Shown: positions 16,931-41,705 of the stretch, one piece after another
How the letters are laid out: every line of letters begins with the position of its first letter
Position numbering within the stretch: the first letter of the stretch is position 1
Assembly (NCBI GenBank): GCA_009841725.1
Contig: VYGS01000094.1
Location: 3,114 to 67,113, forward strand
Direction: 5' to 3'
Length of the DNA: 64,000 bases
From: Gammaproteobacteria bacterium
GTDB lineage: Bacteria > Pseudomonadota > Gammaproteobacteria > Arenicellales > Poriferihabitantaceae
Translations under genes and position numbers: made by a program
Notes under the pieces: generated by a model
The model's input: the letters and a program-made list of their open reading frames with translations, nothing else
The model's database searches: none
Told to the model about the DNA's origin: nothing

Positions 16931-18088
16931 TCATGCCAACGACCGGATCAGTGCGTCCACAAACCGCCCTCCCCTTTCCATCTGCTCAAGGTCAATGAAT
17001 TCATCGGGTTTGTGCGCCTGTGCGATGTGCCCCGGCCCGCAGACAACGGTCGGGATTCCGAACGCCTGAAAGTGACCGCCCTCCGTGCCGTAGCTGACCT
17101 TGCCCGGAGGAGTGTCGCAGCCTAGCAGCCGGGACACTTCCCTGACCAGCGGGTCCTTTTCGGGAGTGTCCATGCCGGGATAATCGGCCAGAGTCTGCCA
17201 CTGGATGCCGGTCTGGCGGGCCACGGCCTGCATTTCGGCCTGGATCACGGTTTCCGCATAAGATCTCACCTCGTCAAACAGCGCTTCGGCGGACTGGTCC
17301 GGAAGATTCCTGATTTCGAAATCGAACCGGCACTCGGACGGGATGATGTTGTTGACCGTGCCGCCATGAATCACGCCGCAATGCAGGGAGGTATAGGGCG
17401 GATCGAACGCCGGATCGAAGGGACCATCGCGAATGATCCGTCGTTGTATCTCGTCGACCTTGGCGATAATTCTCGCGGCAGAGGTCACCGCATTCACTCC
17501 CTTGTCGACCATGGACGAATGGGCTGATTTGCCGTGCACATGGCATCGCTTGAACAGCATGCCCTTGTGGGCCCGAACCGGCTGCATGCCGGTGGGCTCT
17601 CCGATGATGCAGGCCTTCGGTCGCACCGGCCTGTCCCGCAGTCCCTCGAGCAGCTTCGAGACACCCAGGCAGCCGATCTCTTCATCATACGAAAAGGCGA
17701 AATGCACCGGGATGTCGAGGTCGGCATCGAGAATGGTGCGGATACGGCTCAGGCAAAGTGCGATGAAGCCTTTCATGTCACACACCCCTCGCCCGTACAG
17801 CCTTGTTCCGCGCACCTCGGTGCCAAATGGGTCGCTGGACCAGTCCTGGCCATCGACCGGAACGACATCCGTATGGCCCGACAGGACGATCCCGGGCGCG
17901 TTCGGGTTTCCCAGCGTCGCGAACAGATTGGCCTTCCTGCCGTCGTCGTCGTGGGTCAGGTCGAAAGGAATCCCGTGCGGCTCCAGAAGGGAAATGACGT
18001 ACTCGATGAGTTGAAGGTTGGAATTTCGGCTGGTGGTATCGAATGCCACCAGGTCATTCAGCAATGCAACAGAAGAGTTTTCTGACAT
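16931..18088 (-). CDS. argE: acetylornithine deacetylase (M20 peptidase family, ArgE-like)
   Basis: Has LLNDLVAFDTTSRNSN, LSGHTDVVPV and FSYDEEIGCLG motifs. Trimmed to the ATG at 18088. It lies 7 nt upstream of folKP. Confidence 0.75.
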   Translation of the reverse strand: MSENSSVALLNDLVAFDTTSRNSNLQLIEYVISLLEPHGIPFDLTHDDDGRKANLFATLGNPNAPGIVLSGHTDVVPVDGQDWSSDPFGTEVRGTRLYGRGVCDMKGFIALCLSRIRTILDADLDIPVHFAFSYDEEIGCLGVSKLLEGLRDRPVRPKACIIGEPTGMQPVRAHKGMLFKRCHVHGKSAHSSMVDKGVNAVTSAARIIAKVDEIQRRIIRDGPFDPAFDPPYTSLHCGVIHGGTVNNIIPSECRFDFEIRNLPDQSAEALFDEVRSYAETVIQAEMQAVARQTGIQWQTLADYPGMDTPEKDPLVREVSRLLGCDTPPGKVSYGTEGGHFQAFGIPTVVCGPGHIAQAHKPDEFIDLEQMERGGRFVDALIRSLA

Positions 18089-18147
18089 AATTCGCGTTCC
18101 ACTATCCATTCCCGACAAGCATCCAGCAGTGCCTGCGCCAACCTGAA

Positions 18148-18948
18148 ATGATCATCACGGAATTATACACATTTCCCGTCAAGTCCCTTGCCGGCATCCA
18201 GAGCGACGGAGCCCGTATTCTCCGAACCGGGTTCGAGGCCGATCGACAGTGGATGGTGGTCGAGCCCGTCGGTACCTTCCTGACACAGCGATCCTGCCCG
18301 CAGATGGCGCTGGTTCAAACCGCTTTGCGAGGCGACCGACTGGTCCTGTCGACCTTCGGCATGGAAGATATCGAGGTTGCCCCACCCTCGCAGGAACACT
18401 GCGGGCGGATGGACGTCGAGGTATGGGGCGATCGGGTCAACGCCATGGTTCACGGCGACGAGATCAATTCATGGTTGAGCGATGCCCTGGGCAGGCAGTG
18501 CAAGCTCGTTTTCTTTCCGCCTGGCGAGACGCGCGCTTGCGACCCCGAAGTCTCTCTCGCCGACGACTCCACCCTGTTCTCCGACAGCTTTCCGCTGCTG
18601 TTGACGACCCGGGTTTCGCTTGAGGATCTGAACCGCCGCCTGGACGATCCTGTCGGCATGGAGCGCTTTCGCCCCAACATTGTCGTGGATGGCCGGATCC
18701 CCTACGAGGAAGATGGCTGGAAGCAGCTCGAGATCAACGGCATACGCTTGCGGTTCGCGCGTTGCTGCGGCCGCTGTGCCGTGCCAACCGTCAATCCGGC
18801 CACGGGAATGATCGAGGGGCCCGAACCCATCCGGACGCTTTCCGGATATCGAACGGGACGGGACGGCGAGGTCTATTTCGGCATCAACCTCATCCCCGAA
18901 TCGGCCGGGACGATACGCACCGGGGACAAAATCACCGTCGTCAGATAG
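18148..18948 (+). CDS. MOSC domain protein (YcbX-like, N-terminal beta-barrel + MOSC)
   Basis: Has MIITELYTFPVKSLAGIQ (MOSC_N), and RFRPNIVV and CGRCAVPTVNPATG with the conserved Cys (MOSC). Confidence 0.8.
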   Translation: MIITELYTFPVKSLAGIQSDGARILRTGFEADRQWMVVEPVGTFLTQRSCPQMALVQTALRGDRLVLSTFGMEDIEVAPPSQEHCGRMDVEVWGDRVNAMVHGDEINSWLSDALGRQCKLVFFPPGETRACDPEVSLADDSTLFSDSFPLLLTTRVSLEDLNRRLDDPVGMERFRPNIVVDGRIPYEEDGWKQLEINGIRLRFARCCGRCAVPTVNPATGMIEGPEPIRTLSGYRTGRDGEVYFGINLIPESAGTIRTGDKITVVR

Positions 18949-29608: not shown

Positions 29609-30472
29609 TCAGTGCACCATGACGGTGATGATGTGGGAGTGGGCAAGCACATGATCCGTGACTCCTCCGAACATGTGATGGCGAATTCTCGAATGGCTGT
29701 ATCCCCCCATGACCAAAAAATCGCTTTCGATCTCATCGGCCATCGCAAGCAACCGCCTGCCAACAGACTGGTTTCCCCGGTCGAGCGTATTGAGCTGGGC
29801 GCCGATTCCGTGGAATGCAAGCTGCTGGCGTACGCGTTCACCTCCGTCCAGCCGGCTTCGGGCAACCGCTACCGTCACCCGATCCATCTGCATCAGCCAG
29901 GGAATCGTCATCGACAGGGCGCGTGACGATTCCAGACTGTCGTTCCAGGCGATCATGGCGTGTCTCGCCCGGTGAGGCCGCCACTGCGATGGCACCAGTA
30001 CGACCGGCTTTCCGGAATACAAAAGAAGCGTATTCACTACGGTTTCCACTCCTCCCATCCGAAGCTGGCCTGCCGCCTTTTCCGGGCGGGCGATCGCGAC
30101 GGTGTCATGATACCGGGAATGGTGGACCAGCAAGTCGTTGACCTGCCCGAATTCGTGCTCGAACGAGATGGTCACGCCATCCTGGCTTGCCGGTTCGGGG
30201 TTCATGGCCAGGCCGTGCTTTCGGGAAAAATCCTCCACGGTTTTTCGGATCGTTTCCGCCTGCCTTGTCTGCAACTGCTTCTCCTCCGAACGGACGTCCT
30301 GTTGCAGGCTGTTCGAAAGGCTGTTGAAGGCGGCTGATTTCATCACGCTCTCGGAGATGTGGACCGTTGCAATATGCGCATCGAACCTCCGGGCCACGAC
30401 CAGGGCCGTCTCCAGCGTCCGGTAACCGGCCTCGCCGCCTTCGAGAGGCACCAGAATGGATTTGATTGCCAT
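29609..30472 (-). CDS. tandem universal stress protein (two UspA domains)
   Basis: 287 aa. MAIKSILVPLEGGE... and a second ILVP-type domain ending GGVTDHVLAHSHIITVMVH (USP ATP-binding-type C-terminus). Confidence 0.8.
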   Translation of the reverse strand: MAIKSILVPLEGGEAGYRTLETALVVARRFDAHIATVHISESVMKSAAFNSLSNSLQQDVRSEEKQLQTRQAETIRKTVEDFSRKHGLAMNPEPASQDGVTISFEHEFGQVNDLLVHHSRYHDTVAIARPEKAAGQLRMGGVETVVNTLLLYSGKPVVLVPSQWRPHRARHAMIAWNDSLESSRALSMTIPWLMQMDRVTVAVARSRLDGGERVRQQLAFHGIGAQLNTLDRGNQSVGRRLLAMADEIESDFLVMGGYSHSRIRHHMFGGVTDHVLAHSHIITVMVH

Positions 30473-30513: not shown

Positions 30514-31425
30514 TCACCCGCCCAAGACCTCGCCAACGGCGAGACCGCTGTCGCGGGCATATTGCGAAGCAGGAATCTTGCCGCCGTCCGAGCGCACCCT
30601 CTTGATGCAAATCGCACCGTCTGCGGCCGCCACCGTAATCCCGTCGTCATCGATCCCGAGCACTTCTCCCGGTCGGCCGATCCTGCCCGATCGTTCGCTG
30701 TCGAATATCCTGAGCACGGCATTCCCGTGCATCGTCCAGGCTCCCGGCTGCGGATTGGACGCCCGGATGACATTGTAGACCCGCGCCGCCGACTCGCTCC
30801 AGTCCAGGCGGGCCTGGTCCCTGCCAAACCAGGATTCATAGGATCCTTCATCCAGATTCTGTCCGATCCGGGGTGCCCGGCCGGCCTTGACCAGTTCCAG
30901 AGACTCGATCATGGCGTCGACACCCATCGGAAACAGTTTTTTGAAGTAGACGTCTCCAAGCGTTTCATCCGGGCCGATCGAACAGGTCTTCTGCAGCAGG
31001 ATCGGACCCTCGTCCAGACCGTCGTCCGGCCAGAAAATGGTCAGACCGGTTTCCGTCGCGCCCATGGAAATCGGCCAGTTGATGGACGACGGACCACGAT
31101 GCATGGGCAGGAGCGAGGGATGATACTGGAACGATCCGAGTCTGGGCGCGTTGATCACGGCCTCCGGCACGAACAGCAGAACGTAGGCCATCATGCACAG
31201 GTCGGCTTCGAATGATCGCATCAGATCAAGCGACTCGGGGGTTTTCCACGACGACGGCTGATGGACCGGCAATCCGCGTTCGAGCGCAAGCTCCTTCAGG
31301 GGGTCGACAGGCCGGCCCTCCCTGTCCGGAGCCGTACAGACCGCCACGACATTCTCGTTTCCTTCAAGCAGACGCTCCAGAACCGCGCGGCCGAAAGCCT
31401 GCTGCCCGTGCACCACGATTTTCAT
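30514..31425 (-). CDS. formyltransferase-fold protein resembling the N-terminal hydrolase/transformylase domain of 10-formyl-THF dehydrogenase (Formyl_trans_N + _C)
   Basis: Trimmed to the ATG at 31425 (GGAGACGATGCC upstream). It has MKIVVHGQQAFG, FQYHPSLLPMHRGPSSINW (catalytic His) and IFWPDDGLDEGPILLQK (catalytic Asp). The last string is much closer to my memory of rat FDH Nt-domain (IFWADDGLDTGDLLLQK) than to Fmt. Confidence 0.8.
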   Translation of the reverse strand: MKIVVHGQQAFGRAVLERLLEGNENVVAVCTAPDREGRPVDPLKELALERGLPVHQPSSWKTPESLDLMRSFEADLCMMAYVLLFVPEAVINAPRLGSFQYHPSLLPMHRGPSSINWPISMGATETGLTIFWPDDGLDEGPILLQKTCSIGPDETLGDVYFKKLFPMGVDAMIESLELVKAGRAPRIGQNLDEGSYESWFGRDQARLDWSESAARVYNVIRASNPQPGAWTMHGNAVLRIFDSERSGRIGRPGEVLGIDDDGITVAAADGAICIKRVRSDGGKIPASQYARDSGLAVGEVLGG

Positions 31426-31447: not shown

Positions 31448-32695
31448 TCAGACCGCTCCGGCTTCGCGCATGCCGGCAATCTGCTGTTCATCGTATCCGA
31501 GCACCTCGCACAGGATTTCGTCCGTGTGCTCGCCGAGCAGGGGCGAGCGCACGACATCAACCGGGGAGTCGGACATCTTGATCGGGCAGCCGACCGTCAG
31601 GTACTGGCCCCGCTCGGGATGATCCACTTCCACGACCGTGCCGGTTTCGCGAAGCGAAGGCTCTTCCGCCAACTCCTTCATCGACAGGATCGGGCCCACC
31701 GGGATATTGAGTGGATTGCAGATGTCCATGATCTCGAACTTCGTCTTGGTCATGGTCCACTGTTCAATGGCCTCAAACACCGTATTCAGCCTCGGGAGGC
31801 GCGCCTGGGGCGTTGCGAAATCGGAATCCTCCTTCCATTCCGGTTTTCCGATCACTTCGCATATCTGTGTCCAGACCGCGGCCTGGGTGATGAAGTAGGT
31901 GTACGCATTGGGATCGCTTTCCCAGCCCCTGCACTTGAGAATCCGGCCTGGCTGGCCGCCTCCGGAGTCGTTGCCGGCCCGCGGAGTCGCCTCCCCAAAC
32001 GGGACGCCCTCCCCGTACTGGGAGTATTCCGTGAGAGGCCCGCGCTCCAGCCGCTGCTGATCGCGCAGCTTGACCCGGCAAAGATTGAGCACGCCGTCCT
32101 GCATGGGAGCCAAAATACGCTGTCCCCGTCCGGATCTCTCCCGCTGGAACAGGGCTGTCACGATGCCAAGGCAAAGATGCAGTCCCGTTCCCGAATCGCC
32201 GATCTGCGCACCGGTAACCAGAGGCGGGCCGTCGCGGAATCCGGTTGTTGACGCCGCGCCTCCGGCGCACTGCGCCACGTTCTCGTAGACCTTGCAGTCC
32301 TCATACGGCCCCGGGCCGAACCCCTTGACGGACGCCATGATCATGCGCGGATTGATTTCCTGCACCCGCTCCCATGGAAAGCCCATGCGGTCCAGGGCGC
32401 CCGGGGCAAAATTCTCGACCAGGACATCGCAAACTTTGATCAGTCGCTCCAGCACCTCCTTTCCGGTCTCGTGCTTGGTGTTGAGCGTCAGGGAGCGCTT
32501 GTTGTGATTGAGCATCGTGAAGTAGAGGGAATCCGCCCCCTCGACATCGACAAGCTGTTTCCGGGTCGCGTCTCCGACACCGGGCCGCTCGACCTTGATC
32601 ACGTCCGCGCCGAACCAGCCCAGCAATTGCGTGCACGTCGGTCCCGACTGCACATGTGTAAAATCAAGAATCTTGATTCCTTCCAGCGCTTTCAT
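31448..32695 (-). CDS. frc: formyl-CoA:oxalate CoA-transferase (class III CoA-transferase)
   Basis: Trimmed to the ATG at 32695 (AAGGAGAAATCA upstream). [71 protein letters not shown] and GGGQPG...KC.GWE closely track Oxalobacter Frc as I remember it. Confidence 0.9.
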
Positions 32696-32728
32696 TGATT
32701 TCTCCTTGAGCATTATTCTTCTCGATCA

Positions 32729-34477
32729 TCATTTGTACATGGTCTGGGCCTTCGTTCCCGGAGCATATTCGTCCGGATCGACCCAGACATTCACCACCGC
32801 ACATTTGCCGGTTTTGGCGATTGCCTCCCGGGCCCGCCGCAATGCCGGCTGGATTTCGCTGGCCTCGTGAACCTCTTCGCCATACCCGCCGATCATTTCG
32901 CCGAACTTGCTGAACGGCACATCGCCGAGCTTGTTTCCGACATTGCCCCGTTCCTCTCCGTACTTCGCAACCTGACCATAGCGAATCTGGTTCATATGCG
33001 AGTTGTTGCCGACGATGGCCAGAAACGGCGCGCCGAAGCGCTGCGAGGTTTCCATGTCGAATGCCGTCATTCCGAATGATCCGTCTCCGAACAGACAGAC
33101 AACCTCCTTGTCGGGATTGGCCAGCTTGGCCGCCATGGAAAAACCGGTGCCGACCCCGAGCGAGCCGAGTGCGCCGGGATCCATCCATTGCCCGGGATTG
33201 CGCGGGCGCACGGCCTGCGCCGAAATGGTCACGATGTCCCCGCCGTCGCCAACGTAGATCGTCTCTTCATCGAGAAATTCGTTGATTTCAAAAGCGAGCC
33301 GATAGGGATGAATCGGATTCTGGTCCGTGGTGAACATCGGCATCAGCTTCTCGAGCTTCACTGCCTCGATCTCCCTCAGATCCTTCATCCATGCCTTGCG
33401 GGCGCTTCGTGCGCCATTGTCGATCCGGCCCGAAGCCGCCTGCTCGACCGCTGCCATGATCGCTCCGGGATCGCCAGCCAGCCCCAGGTGGATATCCCGG
33501 TTCTTCCCGACCGTGGTGTAATTCTGGTCGATCTGTATCAGCTTGAGATCCTTTGAAATCCGCTTCCCGTAGCCCATCCGAAAATCGAAGGGCGTCCCGA
33601 CGATCACGATCACGTCGGCATTGGTGAACGCATCCCTGCGGGTGCGGTCGAAATGGTGCGGATCGTCTTGCTTCAGCATGCCCCGGCTGGCGCCGTTCAT
33701 GTAGGCCGGAATATCGAGTGCGCGAACCAGACTGATCGCCTCCTTGTGCCCCTGGCAGGCCCAGACCTGCTGTCCGAACAGGATCGCCGGACGTTCCGCC
33801 TTGACCAGTATGTCGGTCAGCATCTCGATGTCTGCCGGATCGCCGATGGATCGCACCGACGCCCTGTACGACCCGGGCTCGGGAATGACCGCGCTATCGA
33901 CGGGAATTTCGCGATCCAGGATATCACGGGGAATTTCCAGATACGAGGGGCCGTAGGCGCCGGTGAAGCATTCGCGAGCCGCCATCGACACCATGTCCGC
34001 GACACGTTCCGTGGAGAACACTCCGGAAGCGAATTTCGTGATCGGTGTCATCATGTCGACATGGGGAAGATCCTGCAGCGATCCCATCCTGTGCTGCGTC
34101 AGGGAGCTTTGTCCGCCGATATGCAGAATCGGGCTTTCGGAACGGAATGCTGTTGCCACACCGGTCACGGCATTGGTACAGCCCGGACCCGCTGTGGTCA
34201 CCACGCAGCCCAGTTTCCCGGTTTGCCGGGCATAGCCGTCCGCGGCATGGGCGGCCGTCTGCTCATGTCGGACGTCGACGATACGGATTCCCTCATCAAG
34301 GCACCCGTCATAGATGTCGATGATGTGACCGCCGCACAGCGTAAATATTGTGTCGACGCCTTCATTCTTGAGGGCTTTCGCCACCAGATGTCCGCCGGAG
34401 ATCACCGCTCCGCTCTTGTCTTTCCTGGCCAGGGTATCCACCGCCGTATCAGTTGCTCGATTCATGGGATTTCTCAT
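32729..34477 (-). CDS. oxc: thiamine-diphosphate enzyme of the oxalyl-CoA decarboxylase / 2-hydroxyacyl-CoA lyase family
   Basis: It is TPP-dependent (RHEQTAAHAADGYAR, GDGSFGMTAFDMET). The size (about 580 aa) fits, as does its position immediately upstream of frc. The assignment to Oxc rather than another ThDP enzyme is mainly contextual. The start is uncertain (34477, 34465 or TTG 34507). Confidence 0.75.
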   Translation of the reverse strand: MRNPMNRATDTAVDTLARKDKSGAVISGGHLVAKALKNEGVDTIFTLCGGHIIDIYDGCLDEGIRIVDVRHEQTAAHAADGYARQTGKLGCVVTTAGPGCTNAVTGVATAFRSESPILHIGGQSSLTQHRMGSLQDLPHVDMMTPITKFASGVFSTERVADMVSMAARECFTGAYGPSYLEIPRDILDREIPVDSAVIPEPGSYRASVRSIGDPADIEMLTDILVKAERPAILFGQQVWACQGHKEAISLVRALDIPAYMNGASRGMLKQDDPHHFDRTRRDAFTNADVIVIVGTPFDFRMGYGKRISKDLKLIQIDQNYTTVGKNRDIHLGLAGDPGAIMAAVEQAASGRIDNGARSARKAWMKDLREIEAVKLEKLMPMFTTDQNPIHPYRLAFEINEFLDEETIYVGDGGDIVTISAQAVRPRNPGQWMDPGALGSLGVGTGFSMAAKLANPDKEVVCLFGDGSFGMTAFDMETSQRFGAPFLAIVGNNSHMNQIRYGQVAKYGEERGNVGNKLGDVPFSKFGEMIGGYGEEVHEASEIQPALRRAREAIAKTGKCAVVNVWVDPDEYAPGTKAQTMYK

Positions 34478-34493
34478 GTATACGATAGTTGTT

Positions 34494-35198
34494 TCATTCA
34501 ATATCAAGGTTGGTCTTGAGGTGTTCCGCCAAATTCAGGGCGTGCTCCCTGACCAATTGCTCGGCCTTGTCCGCCTCTCTACTCTCCAGAGCCTCGATGA
34601 TTTTCATGTGATCGATAATCGAGTCTGTCGCCCGATTCCCCTCCCTGATCGTCTTGTGGCGAATCACCCGCATGTGGAAGAACAGTCCCTCGCAAATGTC
34701 GATCAGGACGGCAGATTTGGAGATTCGGATCAGGCTTTGATGAAACTCGATGTTCTGTTTCGAGTATTCATCAATGCAGGCCTTGGGCTGCCGGTCTTCG
34801 TCGAACGAGATGAACATGGAGCGCAACTCGCCGATTTCCCGGTCCGACGCGTTTTCCACCACGATTCTCGCAGCCAGCCCTTCAAGCACTGCCCACACCC
34901 GGATCATCTCGATGATCTCCGACATGGTCTTTCTGACCACGAAGGCGCCCCGCCGGGGGATCAGTTTTACGACACCCTCGCGCTCCAGCGACATGATCGC
35001 CTCGCGGACAGGCGTACGACTGATGTTCAGGTCTTTTGCAAGTTTTCGTTCATCCAGCCTGATCGGCTCGTCGCTCGTGTAGATGTCCATATCGGCGATG
35101 GCCGATTTCAGGGCGTCCACCACATGATTCTTCAGTGCGGTACTGGAAGGAATCGGCGCCAGGCGGACGACATTCTTTCTGCTGCTGTCCATGGTCAT
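34494..35198 (-). CDS. GntR-family transcriptional regulator (FadR/FCD subfamily)
   Basis: Has an N-terminal wHTH (ERKLAKDLNISRTPVREAIMSLEREGVVKLIPRRGAFV) and an all-helical FCD-type C-terminal domain. Confidence 0.85.
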   Translation of the reverse strand: MTMDSSRKNVVRLAPIPSSTALKNHVVDALKSAIADMDIYTSDEPIRLDERKLAKDLNISRTPVREAIMSLEREGVVKLIPRRGAFVVRKTMSEIIEMIRVWAVLEGLAARIVVENASDREIGELRSMFISFDEDRQPKACIDEYSKQNIEFHQSLIRISKSAVLIDICEGLFFHMRVIRHKTIREGNRATDSIIDHMKIIEALESREADKAEQLVREHALNLAEHLKTNLDIE

Positions 35199-35219
35199 GT
35201 CTCGATATGCTCCTGGAAG

Positions 35220-36743
35220 CTATTTTTCTCCGCTCGTGGCCTGCGCCCTTCTTCTCTTTATCAACTTCTGGATCGTCGGATAGCTGATCAGGGCAATCGC
35301 CAACAGGATGCAGACCAGCGAAATGGGCCGTTCAATGAATATCGTCATTTCTCCCTGTGAAGCCAGCAACGACTGGCGCAACGAGCGCTCCGCAAGGGGA
35401 CCAAGCACGATCGCGAGTACTGCGGGTGCGACCGGATAATTCAGCTTTCTGAGCAGATAGCCGATAATTCCAAACAGGAACATGAGCCAAACGTCATGCA
35501 TCGTCTGTGTCGGCGCGTAACCGCCCACGACGCACAGGATGTAGATCGTCGGAGCCAGAATCGTGAACGGCAACGTCAGTATCTTGACGAAGACGGGAAT
35601 GAACGCCAGGTTGATAAGAACAGTCGCGAAGTTTGCAATGTACAGGGAGCCGATCAATCCCCAGACAAACTCGGGGTGTTCGGTAAACAACAGGGGTCCC
35701 GGGCGCAAGCCCCAGATGATCATGCCCCCGAGAAGGATCGCCGTGGTCGGAGAGCCCGGAATGCCCAATGTGATCATGGGAAGCATGGAACCGGTCGAGG
35801 CGGCATTGTTTCCGGCTTCGGGAGCGGCAACGCCGGCCACGTTGCCCTTCCCGAAGGTTTCCGGCTTGCTCGAGAAGGTTTTCGCGAGCCCGTAGGACAT
35901 CAGCGATGCGGGTGTGGCACCGGCCGCCGGCAGGGTGCCGACAAAATAGCCGATCACCGAGCCGAGGCTCGTGGTTCCGATATAGCTCTTGATTTCCCTG
36001 AGACTGGCGAGGAAGGACCTGACCGACATTTTCACCTTGTGAACGGTCACTTCACCCCGAGTGGTCTCCAGCGTCCACAGCATTTCCCCGATCCCGTAGA
36101 TTCCGATCGCCAGGACCAGGAAGTTGATGCCGTGCAAAAAGCCGGTGATATCCCCGAATATGAGGCGCGGCTGCCCGGAAATGATGTCGAGTCCAATGGT
36201 CGCGAGCACAAGGCCGATCAGGATGGAGAAGATTGTTTTCGGGATGTCGTCGCCTCCAAGCCCAATGAAGGTCGCGAAAGCGAGAACCATCAGGGCAAAC
36301 TCTTCGGGAGGACCGAATTTCAGCGCAAAGGCCGCAAGCGGTGGCGCAAACAGGGTAAACAGGACGACCGAGATGGTGCCGCCGATGAACGAGGCGATCG
36401 CCGCGGCGATCAGCGCCCGATCCGCCTTGCCCGACTGGGCCAGCGGCCGGCCGTCGAACACGGTTGCCACCGCTGTCGAAGCACCGGGTATACCCAGTGT
36501 TATCGAACTGATGGCACCGCCGTACATCGCGCCGTAATAGATCGCGGCCAGGAAAATTATGGCCGCCGTCGGTGGAACCAGAAAAGTGATCGGAAGGAGA
36601 ATCGCAACCCCGTTCACCGAACCGAGACCCGGCATGGCGCCGACGAGCAGGCCGATGGTGCAGCCGATGATGATCATCATGAAATTCAGCGGCTGCATGG
36701 CTTCCAGAATGCCTGAAGCCAACAGTGTGAATATCGAGTCCAT
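35220..36743 (-). CDS. tctA: tripartite tricarboxylate transporter large permease TctA
   Basis: 507-aa polytopic protein with the TctA pattern (GALPGLGSVNGVAILLPITF, GAMYGGAISSI). Confidence 0.9.
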   Translation of the reverse strand: MDSIFTLLASGILEAMQPLNFMMIIIGCTIGLLVGAMPGLGSVNGVAILLPITFLVPPTAAIIFLAAIYYGAMYGGAISSITLGIPGASTAVATVFDGRPLAQSGKADRALIAAAIASFIGGTISVVLFTLFAPPLAAFALKFGPPEEFALMVLAFATFIGLGGDDIPKTIFSILIGLVLATIGLDIISGQPRLIFGDITGFLHGINFLVLAIGIYGIGEMLWTLETTRGEVTVHKVKMSVRSFLASLREIKSYIGTTSLGSVIGYFVGTLPAAGATPASLMSYGLAKTFSSKPETFGKGNVAGVAAPEAGNNAASTGSMLPMITLGIPGSPTTAILLGGMIIWGLRPGPLLFTEHPEFVWGLIGSLYIANFATVLINLAFIPVFVKILTLPFTILAPTIYILCVVGGYAPTQTMHDVWLMFLFGIIGYLLRKLNYPVAPAVLAIVLGPLAERSLRQSLLASQGEMTIFIERPISLVCILLAIALISYPTIQKLIKRRRAQATSGEK

Positions 36744-36811
36744 GGTCGTTTTACCTTAAGTTCACAAAGGACATTGTCCGGTCCGGTTGGTCTGACTTGC
36801 CGCCGCTCCTT

Positions 36812-37318
36812 TCACGAATACATGAGGTCATAGATCGGGTAGAACATCGGTTCCGTGAACGACTTGGGAAGCGGAATTTTCAACGCCCATTCGAACAGGC
36901 AGAATATGAATACCGGAATCCCGATCATGAGAACAATGGTCAGAGGCCAACTGTGGCGCCCGACAAACTTGAGATAGAAAAGGAGAAACAGGAACAGCGA
37001 GAAATAGATTCCCACGATATGGGTCGCCACCAGCAGAAACAGGATCGAGCCGGCCGAAACGCCGACCACAACCAACCGATCCCGGGTGATGAATATCTCG
37101 AGATTTCGGGATTCCGGAGTGATCTTCCTGAACCACCGGTAAACGGTGATGACGGAAACCAGCAACATGCCCGATGACAGCCAGAAGGGCCATGCCCCGG
37201 GCCCGGGTCCCTTTCCTGCAACCCAGCCGATATTGAGTTCCGCGCTCTTCACCATCAGGCCGATCGAGCACAATGCGCACACGATGGCGGCCACCAGTTC
37301 TGTAGTTCGTACGGTCAC
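36812..37318 (-). CDS. tctB: tripartite tricarboxylate transporter small subunit TctB
   Basis: 168 aa with four TM helices, located between tctC and tctA. Confidence 0.75.
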   Translation of the reverse strand: MTVRTTELVAAIVCALCSIGLMVKSAELNIGWVAGKGPGPGAWPFWLSSGMLLVSVITVYRWFRKITPESRNLEIFITRDRLVVVGVSAGSILFLLVATHIVGIYFSLFLFLLFYLKFVGRHSWPLTIVLMIGIPVFIFCLFEWALKIPLPKSFTEPMFYPIYDLMYS

Positions 37319-37360
37319 GAGGCGAATCCCCGGCCAGGATCAGTGAATGTCATCGATCAG

Positions 37361-37391
37361 GCGTGCGGAGCGGCCGTGCCGCTCCGCACGC
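37361..37391 (-). other. perfect 13-bp GC-rich stem-loop in the tctC-tctB intercistronic spacer
   Basis: GCGTGCGGAGCGG (37361-37373), loop ccgtg, then CCGCTCCGCACGC (37379-37391). All 13 pairs are Watson-Crick by hand pairing. No U-tract follows on either strand. Confidence 0.7.
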
Positions 37392-37422
37392 GATCAAAAT
37401 AAATGAACGCTAGGCGATCCAC

Positions 37423-38424
37423 TTATCCGGTAATCGCGTCAGCACCGACCTCTTGGATCAATTTCTTGTGCTTTTCGATTTCCGTCATGTGATACTGGCC
37501 CAGTTCATCGCCTTTGAGGAACGACTCGCATGCCAATCCGTCTTCCACACAGAAGGTCTGCCATTCCTCGGAATTGAACAGGGTTTCAAACAGGCCGATG
37601 TACCAGGCCTGCGCTTCCGCGGACATCCCCGGAGGCCCGTTAATCGAACGCTGCATGTAGTACTCGATCGGATGGCCCAGTTCCTTGGCGGTCGGAATAT
37701 CGGGGTAAGCCGGCAGCCGATTCGCGGTGAACTGCACCAGCGGCTTGGTGTTGCCCGCACGGTAAAACTCGTTCTGCTCTGCAGGATTGTTGACGGTCGA
37801 ATCGATGTGGTTGCCCACCAGGTTCTTGGCCACCGTGCCACCGCCCGGAAACGGGATATAGGTCACTTCGTAGCCAAAATAGCTTTCCATCATGGCAGTG
37901 AGGATGGAATCTTCCTGGCCGCTTCCGGTACCGCCGACTTTCCATTCCCTGCCGGCAGACTTCACGGCGGCGACATAGCTGTCAAAATCGGTGATGTCTC
38001 CACGATCGGTATTGACCCAGAGCAGGAAGTTGTCCAGCGCCATGCGACCGATGGGGGTAAAGGTGCTGACATCCACGCCGATGTCCTGGATGATGGGAGT
38101 GGTGTAGAAGCTGTTCAGCGTCACCAACACCGTATGGTCGTCACCCGCCTTGTCTTCCATGTACCGAAGGGCTTCCGCGCCGGAGCCGCCCGGCTTGTTG
38201 ATCGGAATAAACGGACGCGGTGACAGGTTTTTCTTCTCGATCAGGCCCTGCAGCAGACGAGCGATCTGATCCGCGCCGCCGCCGGTGCCGGCCATGATGA
38301 TCAACTCTACCGGCTTCTTCGGCGACCATTCCGCAGCAGCGGGTCCGGCCAGTCCGAAAGCCGCCGCCACCGCCACTGCGGACGACAGTACAGTCTTGAC
38401 GAGATTCTTCATTCTGGATTTCAT
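37423..38424 (-). CDS. tctC: tripartite tricarboxylate transporter substrate-binding protein TctC (Bug family)
   Basis: Has a signal peptide (LSSAVAVAAAFGLAGPAAAEW) and the Bug-family core KPVELIIMAGTGGGADQIARL. GGAGG lies 7 nt upstream of the ATG. Confidence 0.9.
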   Translation of the reverse strand: MKSRMKNLVKTVLSSAVAVAAAFGLAGPAAAEWSPKKPVELIIMAGTGGGADQIARLLQGLIEKKNLSPRPFIPINKPGGSGAEALRYMEDKAGDDHTVLVTLNSFYTTPIIQDIGVDVSTFTPIGRMALDNFLLWVNTDRGDITDFDSYVAAVKSAGREWKVGGTGSGQEDSILTAMMESYFGYEVTYIPFPGGGTVAKNLVGNHIDSTVNNPAEQNEFYRAGNTKPLVQFTANRLPAYPDIPTAKELGHPIEYYMQRSINGPPGMSAEAQAWYIGLFETLFNSEEWQTFCVEDGLACESFLKGDELGQYHMTEIEKHKKLIQEVGADAITG

Positions 38425-38529
38425 TGTGAGACCTCCATTGGAGTGTTTAGGAATTGCATGAATAAAATACTCTGATATTCACGACTTTATACATAATATT
38501 CTATTATGAATCATATCAAATCGCCTTAT

Positions 38530-38552
38530 TTTGGTATATGGCATTTGGTATA
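38530..38552. promoter_or_regulatory. 9-bp direct repeat TTTGGTATA x2 (14-bp periodicity) in the AT-rich tctC upstream region; the second copy contains the GntR-like core TGGTATACAA
   Basis: The copies are at 38530-38538 and 38544-38552. TGGTATACAA (38546-38555) fits the generic GntR/FadR operator pattern t.GT-N2-AC.a. The surrounding sequence at about 38440-38580 is conspicuously AT-rich in a GC-rich window. Confidence 0.4.
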
Positions 38553-38746
38553 CAAGATACAGAGAGTATCATAGAACAGAGTACCGGCACCATGTCAACC
38601 CCTTCCCGATCCGCGATTTCCGTCACACGGCCCGGAAGGGACGGCAAGGCGCCGAAACATCGGTCTCGGACTCGTCGGACAGAATCTCGCCGAGAGTCAT
38701 TTCGACAGCCTCGAGGACGGCCGCGGAGGGAATGTGGAGCGCTGGC

Positions 38747-39628
38747 CTACTCGGGAGGATTGAGCAACTCGCCGATCTCAAGACCGATTGAGATGGGCGA
38801 AGCGACGACGTGGACACCGGCCCTGGCCAATGCCTGTTTCTTGTCCTGGGCCGTACCGTAACCGTTTCGGATGATGGCGCTGGCGTGCCCCATGTAGGTG
38901 TTGTCCGGCACGTTTTCACCGACAATGCAGGCAATGACGGGTTTGCCGAAATCCGTCCCCTCCAGATATTCCGCCGCCTGCTCTTCCTCGCTGCCCCCGA
39001 TTTCCCCGATCAGCACCACGGCATCCGTGTCCTGATCCCGGCGAAACAGCTCCAGGCAATCGGCAAATCCAAGCCCGCGCACCGGATCTCCGCCCACGCC
39101 GATGCAGGTTGATTGTCCGAGGCCCGCCCGGGTGGTCTGGTCAATCGCTTCATAGGTCAGGGTACTCGACCGGGAAATGATCCCGATCCGGCCCCTGCGG
39201 AAGATCTCTCCGGGCATGATGCCGATGCGGCACTCTCCCGGCGTAATGATTCCGGGCGCATTCGGGCCAATCAGCCGCGTCCGGCTCCCTTGAAGCGCAC
39301 TCATCACCTCCAGCATGTCCAGCAACGGAATATGCTCGGTGATGCAGACCACGAGGTCGATCTCGGCCTCGATCACCTCGATCATGGCCCGGGCCGCGGA
39401 TTCCTTCGGAACGAATATCACCGATGCGTTTGCGCCGGTTTCGCTCATTGCCTCGGATACGGTATCGAAAACCGGCAGTCCGAGATGCTCGATTCCACCC
39501 TTCCCGGGACGAACTCCCGCAACCATCCGGGTGCCGAAGGAGATCGCTCGCTCCACATAGAAACTCGCTTGATGCCCGGTGATCCCCTGGCACAGCACCT
39601 TGGTGTCGCGATTGACCAGAATCGACAC
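38747..39628 (-). CDS. succinyl-CoA-synthetase-alpha-like subunit (ADP-forming acyl-CoA ligase, CoA-binding/phosphohistidine subunit)
   Basis: 293 aa that align along the full length with E. coli SucD. The phosphohistidine loop is kept (YMGHASAII versus MGHAGAII). Substitutions occur in conserved strings (GPNAPG versus GPNCPG, ITEHIP versus ITEGIP). Confidence 0.85.
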   Translation of the reverse strand: MSILVNRDTKVLCQGITGHQASFYVERAISFGTRMVAGVRPGKGGIEHLGLPVFDTVSEAMSETGANASVIFVPKESAARAMIEVIEAEIDLVVCITEHIPLLDMLEVMSALQGSRTRLIGPNAPGIITPGECRIGIMPGEIFRRGRIGIISRSSTLTYEAIDQTTRAGLGQSTCIGVGGDPVRGLGFADCLELFRRDQDTDAVVLIGEIGGSEEEQAAEYLEGTDFGKPVIACIVGENVPDNTYMGHASAIIRNGYGTAQDKKQALARAGVHVVASPISIGLEIGELLNPPE

Positions 39629-39651
39629 AGCGGCTTCTCCTTATCGGCCTC

Positions 39652-40899
39652 TCAGATGCCGAATGCCGATTTCAGTCTCGCCAACAACGCCGGCGATGAC
39701 TGTCTCCCGTCTTCCCGGGAGGTCGATCCCGCCGCCTCGACAGCGTACTTGGCGGCATCGGCCAGGTTGTTGGCCAGATACAGTTGCGGCATGCTCTCTC
39801 TCAGCCTTCTGTTGGCAAGTTCGGCGTTAGTACCTGCCAGGCGGACCGCCATGGGCATATTGACCCTGCGGCTGCTGTGGATCAGCAAAAGCGCGTCCGA
39901 GACGGTATCGCAACGCATGATCCCTCCGCCGAATACGTTCACGAGCAGGCTTTTCGCCCGGGAAATCGACAGCACAAGCTCAATCGCGCTCAGCACCCGG
40001 TTGACCCTGGAGTCGGGAGGGAGATCCAGAAAATTCGCCGGCTCTCCGCCGCAATACTTGATCGCATCCATCGTTGCCATTGCCAGACCGGCACCGACGG
40101 AGAGGTTGGCAACGTTCCCTTCCAGTTCAAGGTAGTTGAAACCATCCATGCTGGCCAGTCTGCTTGCCTCCGGTGGCCCGTCTTCCCGATCCAGCATCAG
40201 GATGGCTTCCTGGCGAAACAGGGCGTTTCGATCAAAGGTCATCTTCGCATCCAGCGCTAGCCAGGCTCCCCCCGCCAGACCGATCGGATTGATCTCGACC
40301 AGCACCGCATCCTTCTCGAAAAACAGCCCCGCCATTCGCTCCACGACCCCGATCAGGCCCTCAGCGGCCGAATTGTCGATCCCGGTCTTCTCGAGAATGG
40401 AACGCAGCCGTTCCTTGGGAATGCTCCGGTCGGAAAGAAGCTCCAGACGATGGGTTGATCCGGACTCGGCCGTGGGCGAGAGGTAGTCGGCTCCGCCCCG
40501 CTCTCCAAAAAACAGCACGACAGATCCTTGTCTCTCATCCACCGTCAGGCTGACACCAAACTCCTTCTCGATCTCCCTGTACTGCTCGATATAGAGGGAA
40601 CTGACCACCTTGCCGGAGGCAGTGGTATGGTCGGTGACCAGCGGCTTGCCCAGCATCGCCACGGCCAGTTCTCGGACTTCGTCCGGCGAGTGCGCCCTGC
40701 GGATGCCTCCCTGTCCATCGGGCATGCGCCCGGCTTCCCGGCCACCGGCGCGGACCTGCGCCTTGACCATCCATGACTCGCCCTTGAGACGTGCCGCGTT
40801 TTCCCGGGCCTCATCCGGCGTCCGGGCCAGCTTGCCCTCCGGGATCGCAATTCCGCATGCTTTCAGCAGTCTCTTTGCCTGATGTTCCCGAATGTTCAT
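39652..40899 (-). CDS. divergent succinyl-CoA-synthetase-beta-like subunit (ATP-grasp)
   Basis: Trimmed to the ATG at 40899 (MNIREHQAKRLL). It has an ATP-grasp N-terminal half. In the C-terminal half, GGEPANFLDL is followed by PPDS where SucC has the conserved GGGA. An extra C-terminal tail of about 25 aa is present. Confidence 0.8.
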   Translation of the reverse strand: MNIREHQAKRLLKACGIAIPEGKLARTPDEARENAARLKGESWMVKAQVRAGGREAGRMPDGQGGIRRAHSPDEVRELAVAMLGKPLVTDHTTASGKVVSSLYIEQYREIEKEFGVSLTVDERQGSVVLFFGERGGADYLSPTAESGSTHRLELLSDRSIPKERLRSILEKTGIDNSAAEGLIGVVERMAGLFFEKDAVLVEINPIGLAGGAWLALDAKMTFDRNALFRQEAILMLDREDGPPEASRLASMDGFNYLELEGNVANLSVGAGLAMATMDAIKYCGGEPANFLDLPPDSRVNRVLSAIELVLSISRAKSLLVNVFGGGIMRCDTVSDALLLIHSSRRVNMPMAVRLAGTNAELANRRLRESMPQLYLANNLADAAKYAVEAAGSTSREDGRQSSPALLARLKSAFGI

Positions 40900-41158
40900 G
40901 TTGACGAAAGACCGGATGGACACGGGTGGATAGCATGAAACGCAGAAGCCCGTGTGTCATGTCGATTCTGCCATATCGCCAAAGTGCGTGCATCGCTTTT
41001 CTTCAAGGGCCCGATGCCGTATAGAGCCATATCCCTCTCCGAAGTTTGACCGACAGTGGTGGTCCAGGCAGGATGGCGTGAATCTTCGTTGCAACTGCTC
41101 AGCAACGTCTCAGACCGGCCTCGTGCCTGTTCCGCAATGCTGTCTTCAGGTTGAGGGG

Positions 41159-41167
41159 GGATCAGTC
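41159..41167. repeat. 9-bp direct repeat copy A (GGATCAGTC) spanning the hicB stop codon
   Basis: Identical 9-mer to 41697-41705. Both copies contain the stop codon (TCA on the plus strand) of a minus-strand gene ending in Asp-stop. Confidence 0.6.
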
Positions 41168-41515
41168 TTGGACCGCATGCTCATTACGCTCGAGATAGTG
41201 CCGCAATGCATCGCTGACAATCGCGTTGAGGCTGACTCCCCGGCGTCTGGAGTAGAGCATCGCACGACGGTGCAGGTCGTGACCAGGACGTACGTTGAAG
41301 CTGCCTTTCAGTGGCATATCAGGCTTGCGGCTTTCAGTTGCACAAAGCCGAAGATAATCGTCCACAGCCTCGTGAAATGCCGTCTTGAGGCTTCTGACAT
41401 TTTCGCCCTCATAGAGCACCCGGTCACGAATGAACTCAAGCCGGCCATGCAGCAGTTCGTCGTCATTGTACTCGACCGAACCGAGATAGCCTTTGTATTC
41501 GAGCATCGTACGCAT
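41162..41515 (-). CDS. hicB: HicB-family antitoxin (HicB_lk N-domain + ribbon-helix-helix C-terminus)
   Basis: MLEYKGYLGSVEYNDDELLHGRLEFIRDRVLYEGENVRSLKTAFHEAVDDYL is the typical HicB-like fold signature. The C-terminal KGSFNVRPGHDLHRRAMLYSRRRGVSLNAIVSDALRHYL is an RHH DNA-binding motif. Confidence 0.8.
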   Translation of the reverse strand: MRTMLEYKGYLGSVEYNDDELLHGRLEFIRDRVLYEGENVRSLKTAFHEAVDDYLRLCATESRKPDMPLKGSFNVRPGHDLHRRAMLYSRRRGVSLNAIVSDALRHYLERNEHAVQD

Positions 41516-41690
41516 ATCAAACTCTCCTCGACAAGAATCCGCAACACATCCCCGATGACATACATTCTGGCAATGTTGACGGGATGCGGCTTATGCAACG
41601 CAATGGCGGGCGCGATTGCATCAAGCCCATATCAAGTCCCGGTTGTGAAATCCCGGCGAATGGACAACTCATCCGGGCCGGCAGCCTGTC
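41516..41690 (-). pseudogene. possible decayed hicA toxin remnant
   Basis: The minus-strand frame reads QAAGPDELSIRRDFTTGT*YGLDAIAPAIALHKPHPVNIARMYVIGDVLRILVEESLI. It is HicA-sized (about 58 codons) with a weak PHP...G..L..IL C-terminal resemblance. It has no start codon, contains an internal TGA, and runs into hicB out of frame. Confidence 0.25.
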
Positions 41691-41696
41691 AGGAAC

Positions 41697-41705
41697 GGAT
41701 CAGTC
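41697..41705. repeat. 9-bp direct repeat copy B (GGATCAGTC) spanning the Rieske-gene stop codon
   Basis: Identical to 41159-41167. The two copies bracket a 538-bp segment containing the hicA remnant and hicB. Confidence 0.6.

Follow-up and report, generated by a model that had tools for sequence, protein, structure and literature searches.

Gene content of the locus

Analysis of the window (the whole stretch of DNA under study, 64,000 nucleotides) identified a pair of genes encoding a predicted ADP-forming acyl-CoA synthetase of the succinyl-CoA synthetase (SCS) type, here termed beta' and alpha'. The features of the locus, in the order in which they are read, were as follows:

41165..41515 (-): hicB antitoxin-like gene
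39652..40899 (-): beta' subunit gene, 415 aa, with ATP-grasp and CoA-ligase domains; member of the "PP clade" of SucC relatives
38747..39628 (-): alpha' subunit gene, 293 aa, with a CoA-binding domain and the phosphohistidine loop MGHASAII
38425..38746 (-): AT-rich spacer separating alpha' from tctC, with a promoter-like TTGACA-N19-TATGAT and the operator-like box TTGTATACCAA
38545-38555: the operator-like box TTGTATACCAA within the alpha'-tctC spacer
37423..38424 (-): tctC, substrate-binding protein of a tripartite tricarboxylate transporter (TTT)
36812..37318 (-): tctB (Pfam)
35220..36743 (-): tctA (Pfam)
34494..35198 (-): GntR/FCD-family regulator that may bind the GGTATACC box
32729..34507 (-): ThDP enzyme of the HACL/OXC superfamily, not a canonical Oxc
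31448..32713 (-): frc, formyl-CoA transferase, 60% identical to E. coli Frc (TIGR03253)
30514..31425 (-): Fmt-like protein of the formyltransferase family, conserved downstream of frc
29609..30472 (-): Usp-domain protein, often last in the locus

An earlier note on this DNA had placed the pair immediately upstream of the transporter genes, and it does share their strand, with the AT-rich spacer of 322 bp between it and tctC downstream. The beta' open reading frame extends to a GTG codon (39652-40923); the ATG at 40899 was taken as the start, in agreement with the database records and with Met1 of E. coli SucC. The frc product scored well above the TIGR03253 cut-off (704 vs. 504 bits). The closest solved relatives of TctC were too remote, at 76 bits or less, to hint at its ligand. 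The hicB-like gene sits where relatives of the locus have a PIG3-type reductase gene and the operon's operator, and both the reductase gene and the operator box are missing upstream of the pair in the window.

The ThDP enzyme had been labeled Oxc in the earlier note, a label that its scores did not bear out. It fell below the Oxc cut-offs (TIGR03254 and NF006721; 224 vs. 557 and 204 vs. 739), shared 25% identity with E. coli Oxc, and matched an actinobacterial 2-hydroxyacyl-CoA lyase (264 bits) better than Oxc (146–172 bits). It has Leu-Gln at the positions of Tyr-Glu in E. coli Oxc, and Ile where the actinobacterial lyase has its catalytic Glu493. A family cut-off search found no canonical Oxc anywhere in the genome. 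With Frc passing its cut-off and the ThDP enzyme failing, the locus is not a canonical frc and oxc oxalate locus. Because the ThDP enzyme resembles HACL more than Oxc, the acid taken up may be one other than oxalate.

Family assignment of the alpha' and beta' proteins

Pfam searches identified ATP-grasp_2 and Ligase_CoA domains in beta', and CoA_binding and Ligase_CoA domains in alpha' (PF08442, PF00549, and PF02629). These three domain types and the phosphohistidine place the pair in the NDP-forming acyl-CoA synthetase superfamily, and SucCD (E. coli; EC 6.2.1.5; PDB 1JKJ, 1CQI, and 2SCU) likewise has two subunits with the same four Pfam domains. The AMP-binding domain of oxalate-CoA ligases of the AAE3/Pcs60 type (EC 6.2.1.8) was absent from the pair in the Pfam search. 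The alpha' protein scored above both SucD cut-offs (TIGR01019, 399.4 vs. 353.2; NF004230, 394.3 vs. 336), whereas beta' was below both NCBIfam SucC cut-offs (NF001913, 323.4 vs. 370; TIGR01016, 295.1 vs. 375.55) and far below that of the malate thiokinase MtkA (NF010647, 284.2 vs. 604).

The closest solved structures to beta' were those of SCS (229 bits). ATP-citrate lyase beta and the large subunit of citryl-CoA synthetase (PDB 6HXJ and 6HXQ) belong to the same superfamily and have the same order of ATP-grasp and CoA-ligase domains, but were very distant matches (43 and 40 bits). The AlphaFold model of beta' had a mean pLDDT of 86. Look-alikes in the ESM Atlas included nothing beyond generic SucC and Mtk clusters.

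Altered and conserved residues

The motifs pointed out in the earlier note (MGHASAII, an insertion, FLDLPPDS, and a C-terminal extension) were all present in the translations. Relative to E. coli SucC, beta' has a 6-residue insertion, AGGREAGRMPDGQGGIRR, and FLDLPPDS in place of FLDVGGGA; its C-terminal extension is of approximately 26 aa, the SucC alignment stopping at residue 397 of 423. A C-terminal tail is also a feature of the PP clade.

Comparison of 140 clade sequences with 79 canonical sequences, among which Mtk-like sequences were included, confirmed that the beta subunit is strongly diverged, as had been claimed, and that conserved pocket loops were altered. The Asn of NGAGLAM, present in 100% of the canonical sequences (n=79), was gone in 131 of the 140 clade members (~94%); PP replaced the invariant GG(G), with the second position conserved in 140/140; the FGGGIMRC loop had one inserted Gly; and the Lys of GGRGK was not conserved. 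The window beta' reads SVGAGLAM, PPD, and FGGGIMRC, whereas the canonical loops (NGAGLAM Asn, GGG, and FGGI(V/L)RC) were 92–100% conserved. Conserved without or almost without exception in 140 homologues, these substitutions are beyond what chance would produce. The altered loops lie in the C-terminal domain of beta' and are, we assume from the pig GTP-specific SCS-succinate structure, the succinate-binding loops. The MtkA and SucC of this genome likewise differ from each other in the FGGI loop, which fits this loop setting acid specificity.

The catalytic and nucleotide residues of beta' were retained (K46, R54, E202, N204, and D217); in sequence sets A1/A2, K46, R54, E202, and D217 were invariant and N204 was at least 90% conserved. 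The alpha' protein retained the phosphohistidine loop and the glutamate of GEIGG. It carried clade-specific changes, H24Y, T40R, and G99H/R (the G of TEGIP; H in the window), at positions that are 85–100% conserved in canonical SucD. Judged from these alignments, the beta' loops around the carboxylate site are rebuilt and the catalytic machinery is retained.

The PP clade and other SucCD-type enzymes of the genome

In the phylogeny of the beta subunit that the earlier note had called for, one branch (SH-aLRT 98) separated the PP clade from the SucC and Mtk-like sequences. The Mtk-like sequences nested within SucC and the PP clade lay outside both. The branch to the window beta' was long (0.59), and that of beta' from a sister species (G005), which keeps the full gene arrangement, was similarly long. 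A profile scan of the genome collection gave, among the matches listed, only canonical SucC at 36–41% identity, which served as the outgroup set, and a class-wide sample of 400 genomes contained one further carrier of the clade. On sequence grounds the pair falls in a distinct, uncharacterized clade of the SCS family. A literature search found no report of an ADP-forming oxalyl-CoA synthetase or of SucCD-like genes in frc loci. The sequence runs containing the locus were DNA runs labeled as sponge and coral metagenomes, with no RNA run listed.

The genome encodes a canonical SucCD on another contig, C12 (546.6 bits for SucC), and MtkAB on C60 (614.8 vs. a cut-off of 604), the latter adjacent to a malyl-CoA-lyase-like (CitE-like) gene. 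An apparent frameshift that suggested a broken canonical sucD was traced to 10 consecutive N in the scaffold and dismissed. Canonical SucC was also kept in every related genome carrying the clade. The search for a canonical sucCD elsewhere in the genome, suggested in the earlier note, thus upheld its view that the pair was unlikely to be the housekeeping SCS. Its alternative of a malate, itaconate, or citramalate thiokinase gained no support from family or context and was rejected, given the score against the Mtk model and the presence of a real MtkAB. MtkAB resembles the pair in being a paralogue of SucCD with a changed FGGI loop and, as is proposed for the pair, another acid specificity; unlike the pair, it passes the MtkA cut-off (284 vs. 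604 for beta') and falls inside SucC in the tree. The pair is neither the citric acid cycle SCS of this genome nor its malate thiokinase.

Conservation of the gene neighborhood

Synteny was examined in approximately 49 loci whose beta subunits were 39–60% identical to that of the window. The usual gene order was beta'-alpha'-tctCBA-gntR-(ThDP)-frc, with Frc found in 12 of the 15 loci that extended for at least 9 kb. A PIG3 reductase or FdsA was encoded upstream of the pair in 26/38 loci, and the PIG3-type reductase gene was directly upstream of beta' in 22/38. In seven loci (L122, L123, L128, L134, L143, L156, and L160) fdsB-fdsA lay directly upstream of the pair and co-directional with it. 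NAD-formate dehydrogenase, an ApbA-type reductase, and folate-C1 enzymes were further members of the gene set, so that two reductase genes (PIG3 type and ApbA) recurred in the locus. In distant loci an ACD-type ligase also adjoined frc. The gene set, together with the clade, is found in many marine bacteria.

Among 41 related genomes, each clade beta subunit was in a genome bearing Frc, at 2–14 kb from Frc where the assembly was contiguous. The earlier note had made its proposal depend on conservation of the pair with frc, and here every clade-bearing genome had Frc. The converse did not hold: Frc was present in 24 of these genomes and the pair in about 10, and Frc often occurring without the pair counts against a role in the Frc cycle. 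So do three loci (L012, L127, and L134) with the pair and no tct or frc nearby, in the first of which the trio of reductase, beta', and alpha' stands alone. Two congeners (G001 and G006) lack the entire 9-kb block. Two other genomes (G023 and G012) keep Frc, ApbA, TctCBA, and the ligase, and no OXC-type decarboxylase was detected genome-wide in either, so that a thioester source other than a decarboxylase cycle is required there. In one genus, g1, canonical sucCD is followed by the genes for the PIG3 reductase and ApbA, so an ordinary SCS may supply the same pathway, and succinate might still be a substrate of the clade.

The promoter region and an operator-like box

The spacer between alpha' and tctC has a G+C content of 44–49%, compared to about 60% in its flanks, and no intrinsic terminator was found between the two genes. 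The sequence GGTATAC/GTATACC (the GGTATACC box) preceded tctC in 13 loci and the ligase operon in 8, against a background of 120 copies per 2.61 Mb; in eight loci this operator-like box was common to both promoters. Upstream of beta' in the window we found neither the GGTATACC box nor a consensus promoter. The pair is apparently co-regulated with Frc, the TTT importer, and formate dehydrogenase.

Proposed role of the ligase

The Frc cycle does not start by itself, and thioester is lost from it when oxalyl-CoA is drawn off to glyoxylate. We infer the acid, the reaction direction, and the physiological role of the ligase as follows. The ligase probably serves an oxalate or formate pathway with CoA thioesters, not the citric acid cycle. 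There is, in our estimation, about an even chance that it is an ATP-dependent enzyme that starts the Frc thioester cycle or replenishes it, with oxalate as the favored acid and formate as the other. ATP would phosphorylate the histidine, the acid would be converted to an acyl phosphate, and CoA would displace the phosphate. Oxalyl-CoA would be made from imported oxalate, or formyl-CoA from formate, at the cost of ATP, and the thioester so made would either start the Frc cycle or replace thioester lost, for example by reduction of oxalyl-CoA to glyoxylate. The ligase would then be a dedicated yet dispensable member of a conserved, Frc-centered gene set. If the ligase made oxalyl-CoA itself, genomes lacking the decarboxylase would have no need of Frc, which favors formate or some other donor acid rather than oxalate. 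Somewhat short of an even chance is that the PP clade represents the first ADP-forming SCS-type synthetase for a C1 or C2 acid, making oxalyl-CoA or formyl-CoA with the conversion of one ATP to ADP. Both decarboxylation and reduction to glyoxylate are described as fates of oxalyl-CoA (PMC13409138).

Several other readings of the pair were weighed against this priming role. It is rather unlikely that the enzyme is still a succinate-CoA ligase, a second SCS that either regenerates succinyl-CoA as CoA donor for Frc (succinyl-CoA + oxalate -> oxalyl-CoA + succinate) or harvests ATP from succinyl-CoA made by such transfer. The passing of the SucD equivalog cut-offs by alpha', SCS being the closest solved structures (229 bits), and the reductase genes behind canonical sucCD in genus g1, where a normal SCS can evidently partner these genes, all agree with it, and Pseudomonas fluorescens provides a precedent in a coupled scheme of oxalate CoA-transferase and SCS (PMC2752808). 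Against it, beta' is below the SucC cut-offs, the Asn and GGG loop that are invariant in 79 canonical sequences, Mtk-like included, are replaced throughout the clade, and a canonical SucCD is already present in every carrier examined. We consider it quite unlikely that the acid activated is an imported 2-hydroxy (di)carboxylate (glycolate, tartronate, tartrate, or malate), from which the ThDP enzyme, as a lyase, would produce formyl-CoA and an aldehyde, with Frc recycling the CoA and the reductases taking the aldehyde. The similarity of the ThDP enzyme to the 2-hydroxyacyl-CoA lyase rather than to Oxc, its Leu-Gln in place of Tyr-Glu, the two recurrent reductase genes, and the di- or tricarboxylates that are the usual cargo of TctC-type importers would suit such a pathway. 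However, Frc is 60% identical to the E. coli formyl-CoA:oxalate transferase and passes the equivalog cut-off, the ThDP enzyme has Ile for the catalytic Glu493, and G023 and G012 keep ligase, Frc, and ApbA without such a lyase.

The ligase might also run in the direction of ATP formation (formyl-CoA or oxalyl-CoA + ADP + phosphate -> acid + CoA + ATP), so saving thioester energy before formate dehydrogenase oxidizes the formate. SCS-type enzymes are reversible, the pair is directly downstream of fdsB-fdsA in the seven loci named above, and an ACD-type ligase lies beside frc in distant loci. Nonetheless, this direction is highly unlikely: no thioester is left over from the Frc/decarboxylase cycle, the transporter encoded in the locus is an importer and not an exporter, and nothing in the data points to a direction. 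Still less probable is that the pair and the PIG3-type reductase form a separate two-step module (acid -> acyl-CoA -> reduced product) that acts on an unrelated acid, for example an unsaturated one, and merely lie beside the frc locus. The trio of reductase, beta', and alpha' is the tightest unit, occurs alone in L012, and has the reductase directly upstream of beta' in 22/38 loci, but no reductase gene is beside the pair in the window, and linkage to the TTT and frc genes, with an operator-like box in common, extends across subclades. Least probable of all, we judge, is that the window pair is a poorly expressed remnant whose partner gene and operator were lost when the hicB cassette took their position. 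Such decay would account for the missing GGTATACC box and consensus promoter, the long branch of beta' (0.59), and the absence of the whole 9-kb block from G001 and G006; yet both reading frames are intact, all clade-invariant residues are retained, and the similarly long-branched sister G005 has the full arrangement.

Comparison with known systems

With SucCD, its best structural relative, the pair shares the phosphohistidine loop, the ATP-grasp nucleotide residues, and an alpha subunit passing the SucD cut-offs. It differs in the beta subunit (scores below the SucC cut-offs, Asn lost, GGG changed to PP, Gly inserted, GGRGK Lys lost, a loop insertion, and a C-terminal tail) and in the alpha subunit (H24Y and G99H/R), and it has no TCA-cycle context and is additional to a canonical SucCD.

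To our knowledge, thioester replacement in aerobic oxalate users is known for few organisms only; these use either AMP-forming ligases or transfer of CoA from acetyl-CoA or succinyl-CoA. If the priming role is correct, a dedicated ADP-forming ligase would be a new solution to the thioester supply of the Frc cycle and would provide these bacteria with the net-activation step missing from aerobic oxalate assimilation. The role proposed would match those of two proteins from families unrelated to the pair: the acetyl-CoA:oxalate CoA-transferase YfdE, with which E. coli primes the Frc cycle by supplying the first oxalyl-CoA for the Frc/decarboxylase pathway (PMC3720670), and the plant and yeast oxalyl-CoA synthetase AAE3/Pcs60 (PMC9090294). 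YfdE uses acetyl-CoA and not ATP, and AAE3 forms AMP and not ADP.

The proposed enzyme would also constitute a natural route to formyl-CoA or oxalyl-CoA that is cheaper than the AMP-forming ligases of synthetic one-carbon pathways, and with formate or oxalate as its acid it could be useful in engineered one-carbon assimilation. The locus would give a physiological context to the bacterial HACL/OXC-like ThDP enzymes, for which few natural roles have been established. Automatic annotations of "succinate--CoA ligase" would conceal a separate functional clade.

The Ligase Pair and Its Clade

The genes of the SucC-like (beta') and SucD-like (alpha') subunits were placed as follows:

39652-40923, minus strand: beta' open reading frame, with GTG at its upstream end
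39652-40899, minus strand: beta' protein of 415 aa from the ATG at 40899, the recorded start, with alignment from E. coli SucC Met1
38747-39628, minus strand: alpha' open reading frame, 293 aa

Pfam domains were ATP-grasp_2 and Ligase_CoA in beta' and CoA_binding and Ligase_CoA in alpha', and sequence comparison indicated that the catalytic residues of the pair are kept. The earlier note had described the phosphohistidine-loop string MGHASAII in alpha' and, in beta', an insertion (AGGREAGRMPDGQGGIRR, six residues extra relative to E. coli SucC), FLDLPPDS where SucC has FLDVGGGA, and a C-terminal extension of roughly 25 aa; all were present, the extension running about 26 residues past the end of the SucC alignment. 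The pair is also on the same strand as tctC, as had been stated, with a 322-bp AT-rich spacer between them. In NCBIfam searches alpha' scored above the SucD cut-offs (399 vs 353) and beta' below those of SucC (323 vs 370; 295 vs 375.55). An assignment of beta' as malate thiokinase was rejected (284 vs a cut-off of 604). The AlphaFold model of beta' (mean pLDDT 86) was confident apart from the C-terminal tail (39652-39720, minus strand), where confidence was low save in a short helix at residues 403-412; an SWWxR(V/L/I) motif occurs in this tail across the family.

The best 120 database homologues of beta' (39-60% identity, 396-463 aa) nearly all had NFLD-x-PP and FGGGIMRC. Comparison of 140 members of this clade, in which PP replaces the invariant GG(G) of SucC, with 79 canonical SucC/Mtk-like sequences upheld the claimed divergence of beta', as the clade departs at positions 85-100% conserved in the canonical set. 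The Lys of GGRGK is gone, beside a variable loop insertion; 131 of the 140 lack the NGAGLAM Asn, a residue 100% conserved among the canonical sequences; the GGG after NFLD becomes PP plus one variable residue; FGGI(V/L)RC gains one Gly to become FGGGIM; and a tail with an SWWxR-like motif, absent from canonical sequences, is present. We take the NGAGLAM Asn and the FGG loop to be succinate contacts in the pig SCS-succinate structure. The FGGI loop also differs between MtkA (FAGINRC) and SucC (FGGILRC) of the window's own genome (G000), which fits a role for this loop in setting acid specificity. The alpha partners of clade betas carry H24Y, T40R and G99 to His/Arg (in the TEGIP loop), at positions invariant in canonical SucD.

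In a maximum-likelihood tree, obtained by a quick search with midpoint rooting only, the clade formed one side of a branch (SH-aLRT 98), opposite canonical SucC, inside which the Mtk-like sequences were nested. Beta' is related much more remotely to ATP-citrate lyase and citryl-CoA synthetase. Based on these sequence comparisons, the clade is distinct from SucC and the Mtk-like sequences. Among the named relatives is Candidatus Spongiihabitans, of the order Arenicellales, and DNA of the window was found in runs labelled sponge and coral metagenomes. Our literature search returned no account of the clade or of an ADP-forming oxalyl- or formyl-CoA synthetase.

Other SucCD-Type Pairs in the Genome

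The G000 assembly (2.6 Mb, 168 contigs, 94% complete) contained three SucCD-type pairs: the window pair, a canonical SucCD on contig C12 (546.6 bits) and an MtkAB on contig C60 (614.8 vs a cut-off of 604), which adjoins a CitE/malyl-CoA-lyase-like gene. The earlier note had proposed looking for a canonical sucCD elsewhere and thought the window pair unlikely to be the housekeeping enzyme; the separate pairs on C12 and C60 bear this out. A seeming frameshift in the canonical sucD was a scaffold gap of 10 N (C12:55514-55523). Canonical SucC was also found in all related genomes with a beta' relative.

Orthologues of a PIG3-type reductase and ApbA come after canonical sucCD in G000: C12 terminates in the start of the reductase gene, and the remainder and ApbA are on the 2857-bp contig C4 (5 mismatches in the 41-base overlap). 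Three related genomes (G001, G002, G006) repeat this order, and in G003 the reductase follows sucC/sucD and ApbA is on a different contig. Genes for NAD-formate dehydrogenase and formate-THF ligase (fdsB-fdsA-fhs) lie together at C144:12249-18413, close to a contig end.

Gene Order and Possible Co-Regulation

The window order, beta'-alpha'-tctC-tctB-tctA-gntR-ThDP enzyme-frc-Fmt-like-Usp, was found again in the closest relative (L011, 60% identity), in L013-L015 (45-53%), in distant subclades (L122, L123, L128, L129 and L135, 40-43%), in eight related reference genomes and in many of 33 further metagenomic loci retrieved by a clade-specific DNA pattern. Linkage tallies are rough, covering 49 distinct, phylogenetically non-independent loci: of 31 loci with sufficient flank, 18 had TctC at most 4.5 kb downstream of the pair and about 23 had TTT importer genes beside it (hand count), and Frc was present in 12 of 15 loci reaching at least 9 kb. 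A PIG3-type MDR reductase (TIGR02824) was immediately upstream in 22/38 loci, and either this reductase or formate dehydrogenase FdsA was upstream in 26/38. Neither tct nor frc was found nearby in three exceptions (L012, L127, L134).

Among 41 related genomes, Frc was present in 24 and the clade in about 10, all of which have Frc, consistent with the co-conservation that the earlier note had raised; the distance from pair to Frc was 2-14 kb in contiguous assemblies. When 400 genomes were sampled evenly across the class, just one further carrier emerged, with beta'-alpha'-tctCBA. One metagenomic contig (L148, 4-4497) had tandem SucCD-like pairs immediately upstream of tctC, and the second of these belongs to the clade. 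In locus L013 (Candidatus Spongiihabitans) the ThDP gene is cut to a 108-aa fragment (15805-16131) and the Fmt-like gene is broken in two (17488-18301); ligase, tctCBA and frc are all intact.

In G001 and G006, congeners of G000, the suf operon lies directly next to frc, which indicates that the following segment is either present or missing as a unit:

32713-41700: block of ~9 kb with ThDP enzyme, gntR, tctABC, alpha', beta' and hicB, missing from G001 and G006

Another genome of the genus, G005, has reductase-beta'-alpha'-tctC; in the window, hicB lies at the position of the relatives' reductase gene.

A GGTATAC/GTATACC box precedes tctC by less than 150 bp in the window (38545-38555) and 12 other loci, often as the palindrome GGTATACC or as two copies spaced 8-9 bp, and in several loci upstream of gntR too. 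It also preceded the first gene of the ligase-containing operon in L011, L113, L115, L117, L122, L123, L127 and L128; no box was found upstream of beta' in the window. The 7-mer background in G000 was 120 copies per 2.61 Mb, about 0.014 per 300 bp. The box resembles FCD/GntR operators and the locus encodes a regulator of this type, whose operator the box is likely to be. Boxes of the GGTATACC type recur across distant loci before tctC, gntR and the ligase/formate-dehydrogenase operon.

Frc and the ThDP Enzyme

The window Frc and E. coli formyl-CoA transferase are good orthologues: they are 60% identical and align at both the catalytic Asp and the glycine loop. The label oxc given to its neighbor in the earlier note did not hold:

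32729-34507, minus strand: ThDP enzyme, fitting neither the Oxc nor the lyase signature

Its scores against the Oxc cut-offs were 224 vs 557 and 204 vs 739, it shared 25% of its residues with E. coli Oxc and had Leu-Gln at the Tyr-Glu site of that enzyme, and its best solved relatives were 2-hydroxyacyl-CoA lyases (264 bits, vs 146-172 for Oxc). It has Ile at the site of the catalytic Glu493 of an actinobacterial lyase (sequence in PMC8760513). Both families release formyl-CoA. Family-level relatives share 84-90% identity in the ThDP enzyme, which is far better conserved than beta'.

The recurring partner genes (NAD-formate dehydrogenase, formate-THF ligase, Fmt-like protein and ApbA-family reductase) fit the classical scheme, which gives oxalyl-CoA two fates: decarboxylation to formyl-CoA, from which formate is made, or reduction to glyoxylate (PMC13409138).

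Proposed Role of the Pair

Two related genomes, G023 and G012, retain TctCBA, Frc, ApbA and the ligase pair, and no OXC-type decarboxylase was detected anywhere in either; their sole TIGR03254 matches (about 186-214 bits) were similar to that of the biosynthetic acetolactate synthase of G000 (227 bits). Frc in these genomes would get no formyl-CoA via decarboxylation, and reduction of oxalyl-CoA would use up thioester, so that a net ATP-driven thioester source would be needed. The ligase pair is the obvious candidate.

We give roughly even chances to the reading that the pair is a putatively active ligase of the SCS type whose acid specificity has changed and which starts and replenishes the thioester pool of Frc. 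Oxalate is one candidate acid, favored by the identity of Frc, the link to ApbA and the His/Arg gained in the alpha' TEGIP loop, a loop we believe to be close to the CoA thiol. Formate is another: in that case the ligase and Frc would work one after the other, which would explain why both are kept without the decarboxylase, the pair is tightly linked to formate dehydrogenase, and the acid pocket looks filled and less polar. Public records label clade proteins succinate-CoA ligase; that succinate is retained as substrate seems unlikely to us, and a 2-hydroxy acid quite unlikely. We regard operation toward ATP formation as very improbable, and a separate module of pair and reductase as the least probable of these readings.

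Two sets of facts lie outside the Frc-priming reading. In genus g1, canonical sucCD is followed by the PIG3 reductase and ApbA. In distant loci, the slot after frc that the Fmt-like gene has in the window holds a second ligase, an ADP-forming acyl-CoA synthetase of the ACD type with 710 aa (L122, 19455-21248; L123, 18462-20594; L151; L160), giving each of these loci two ADP-forming ligases.
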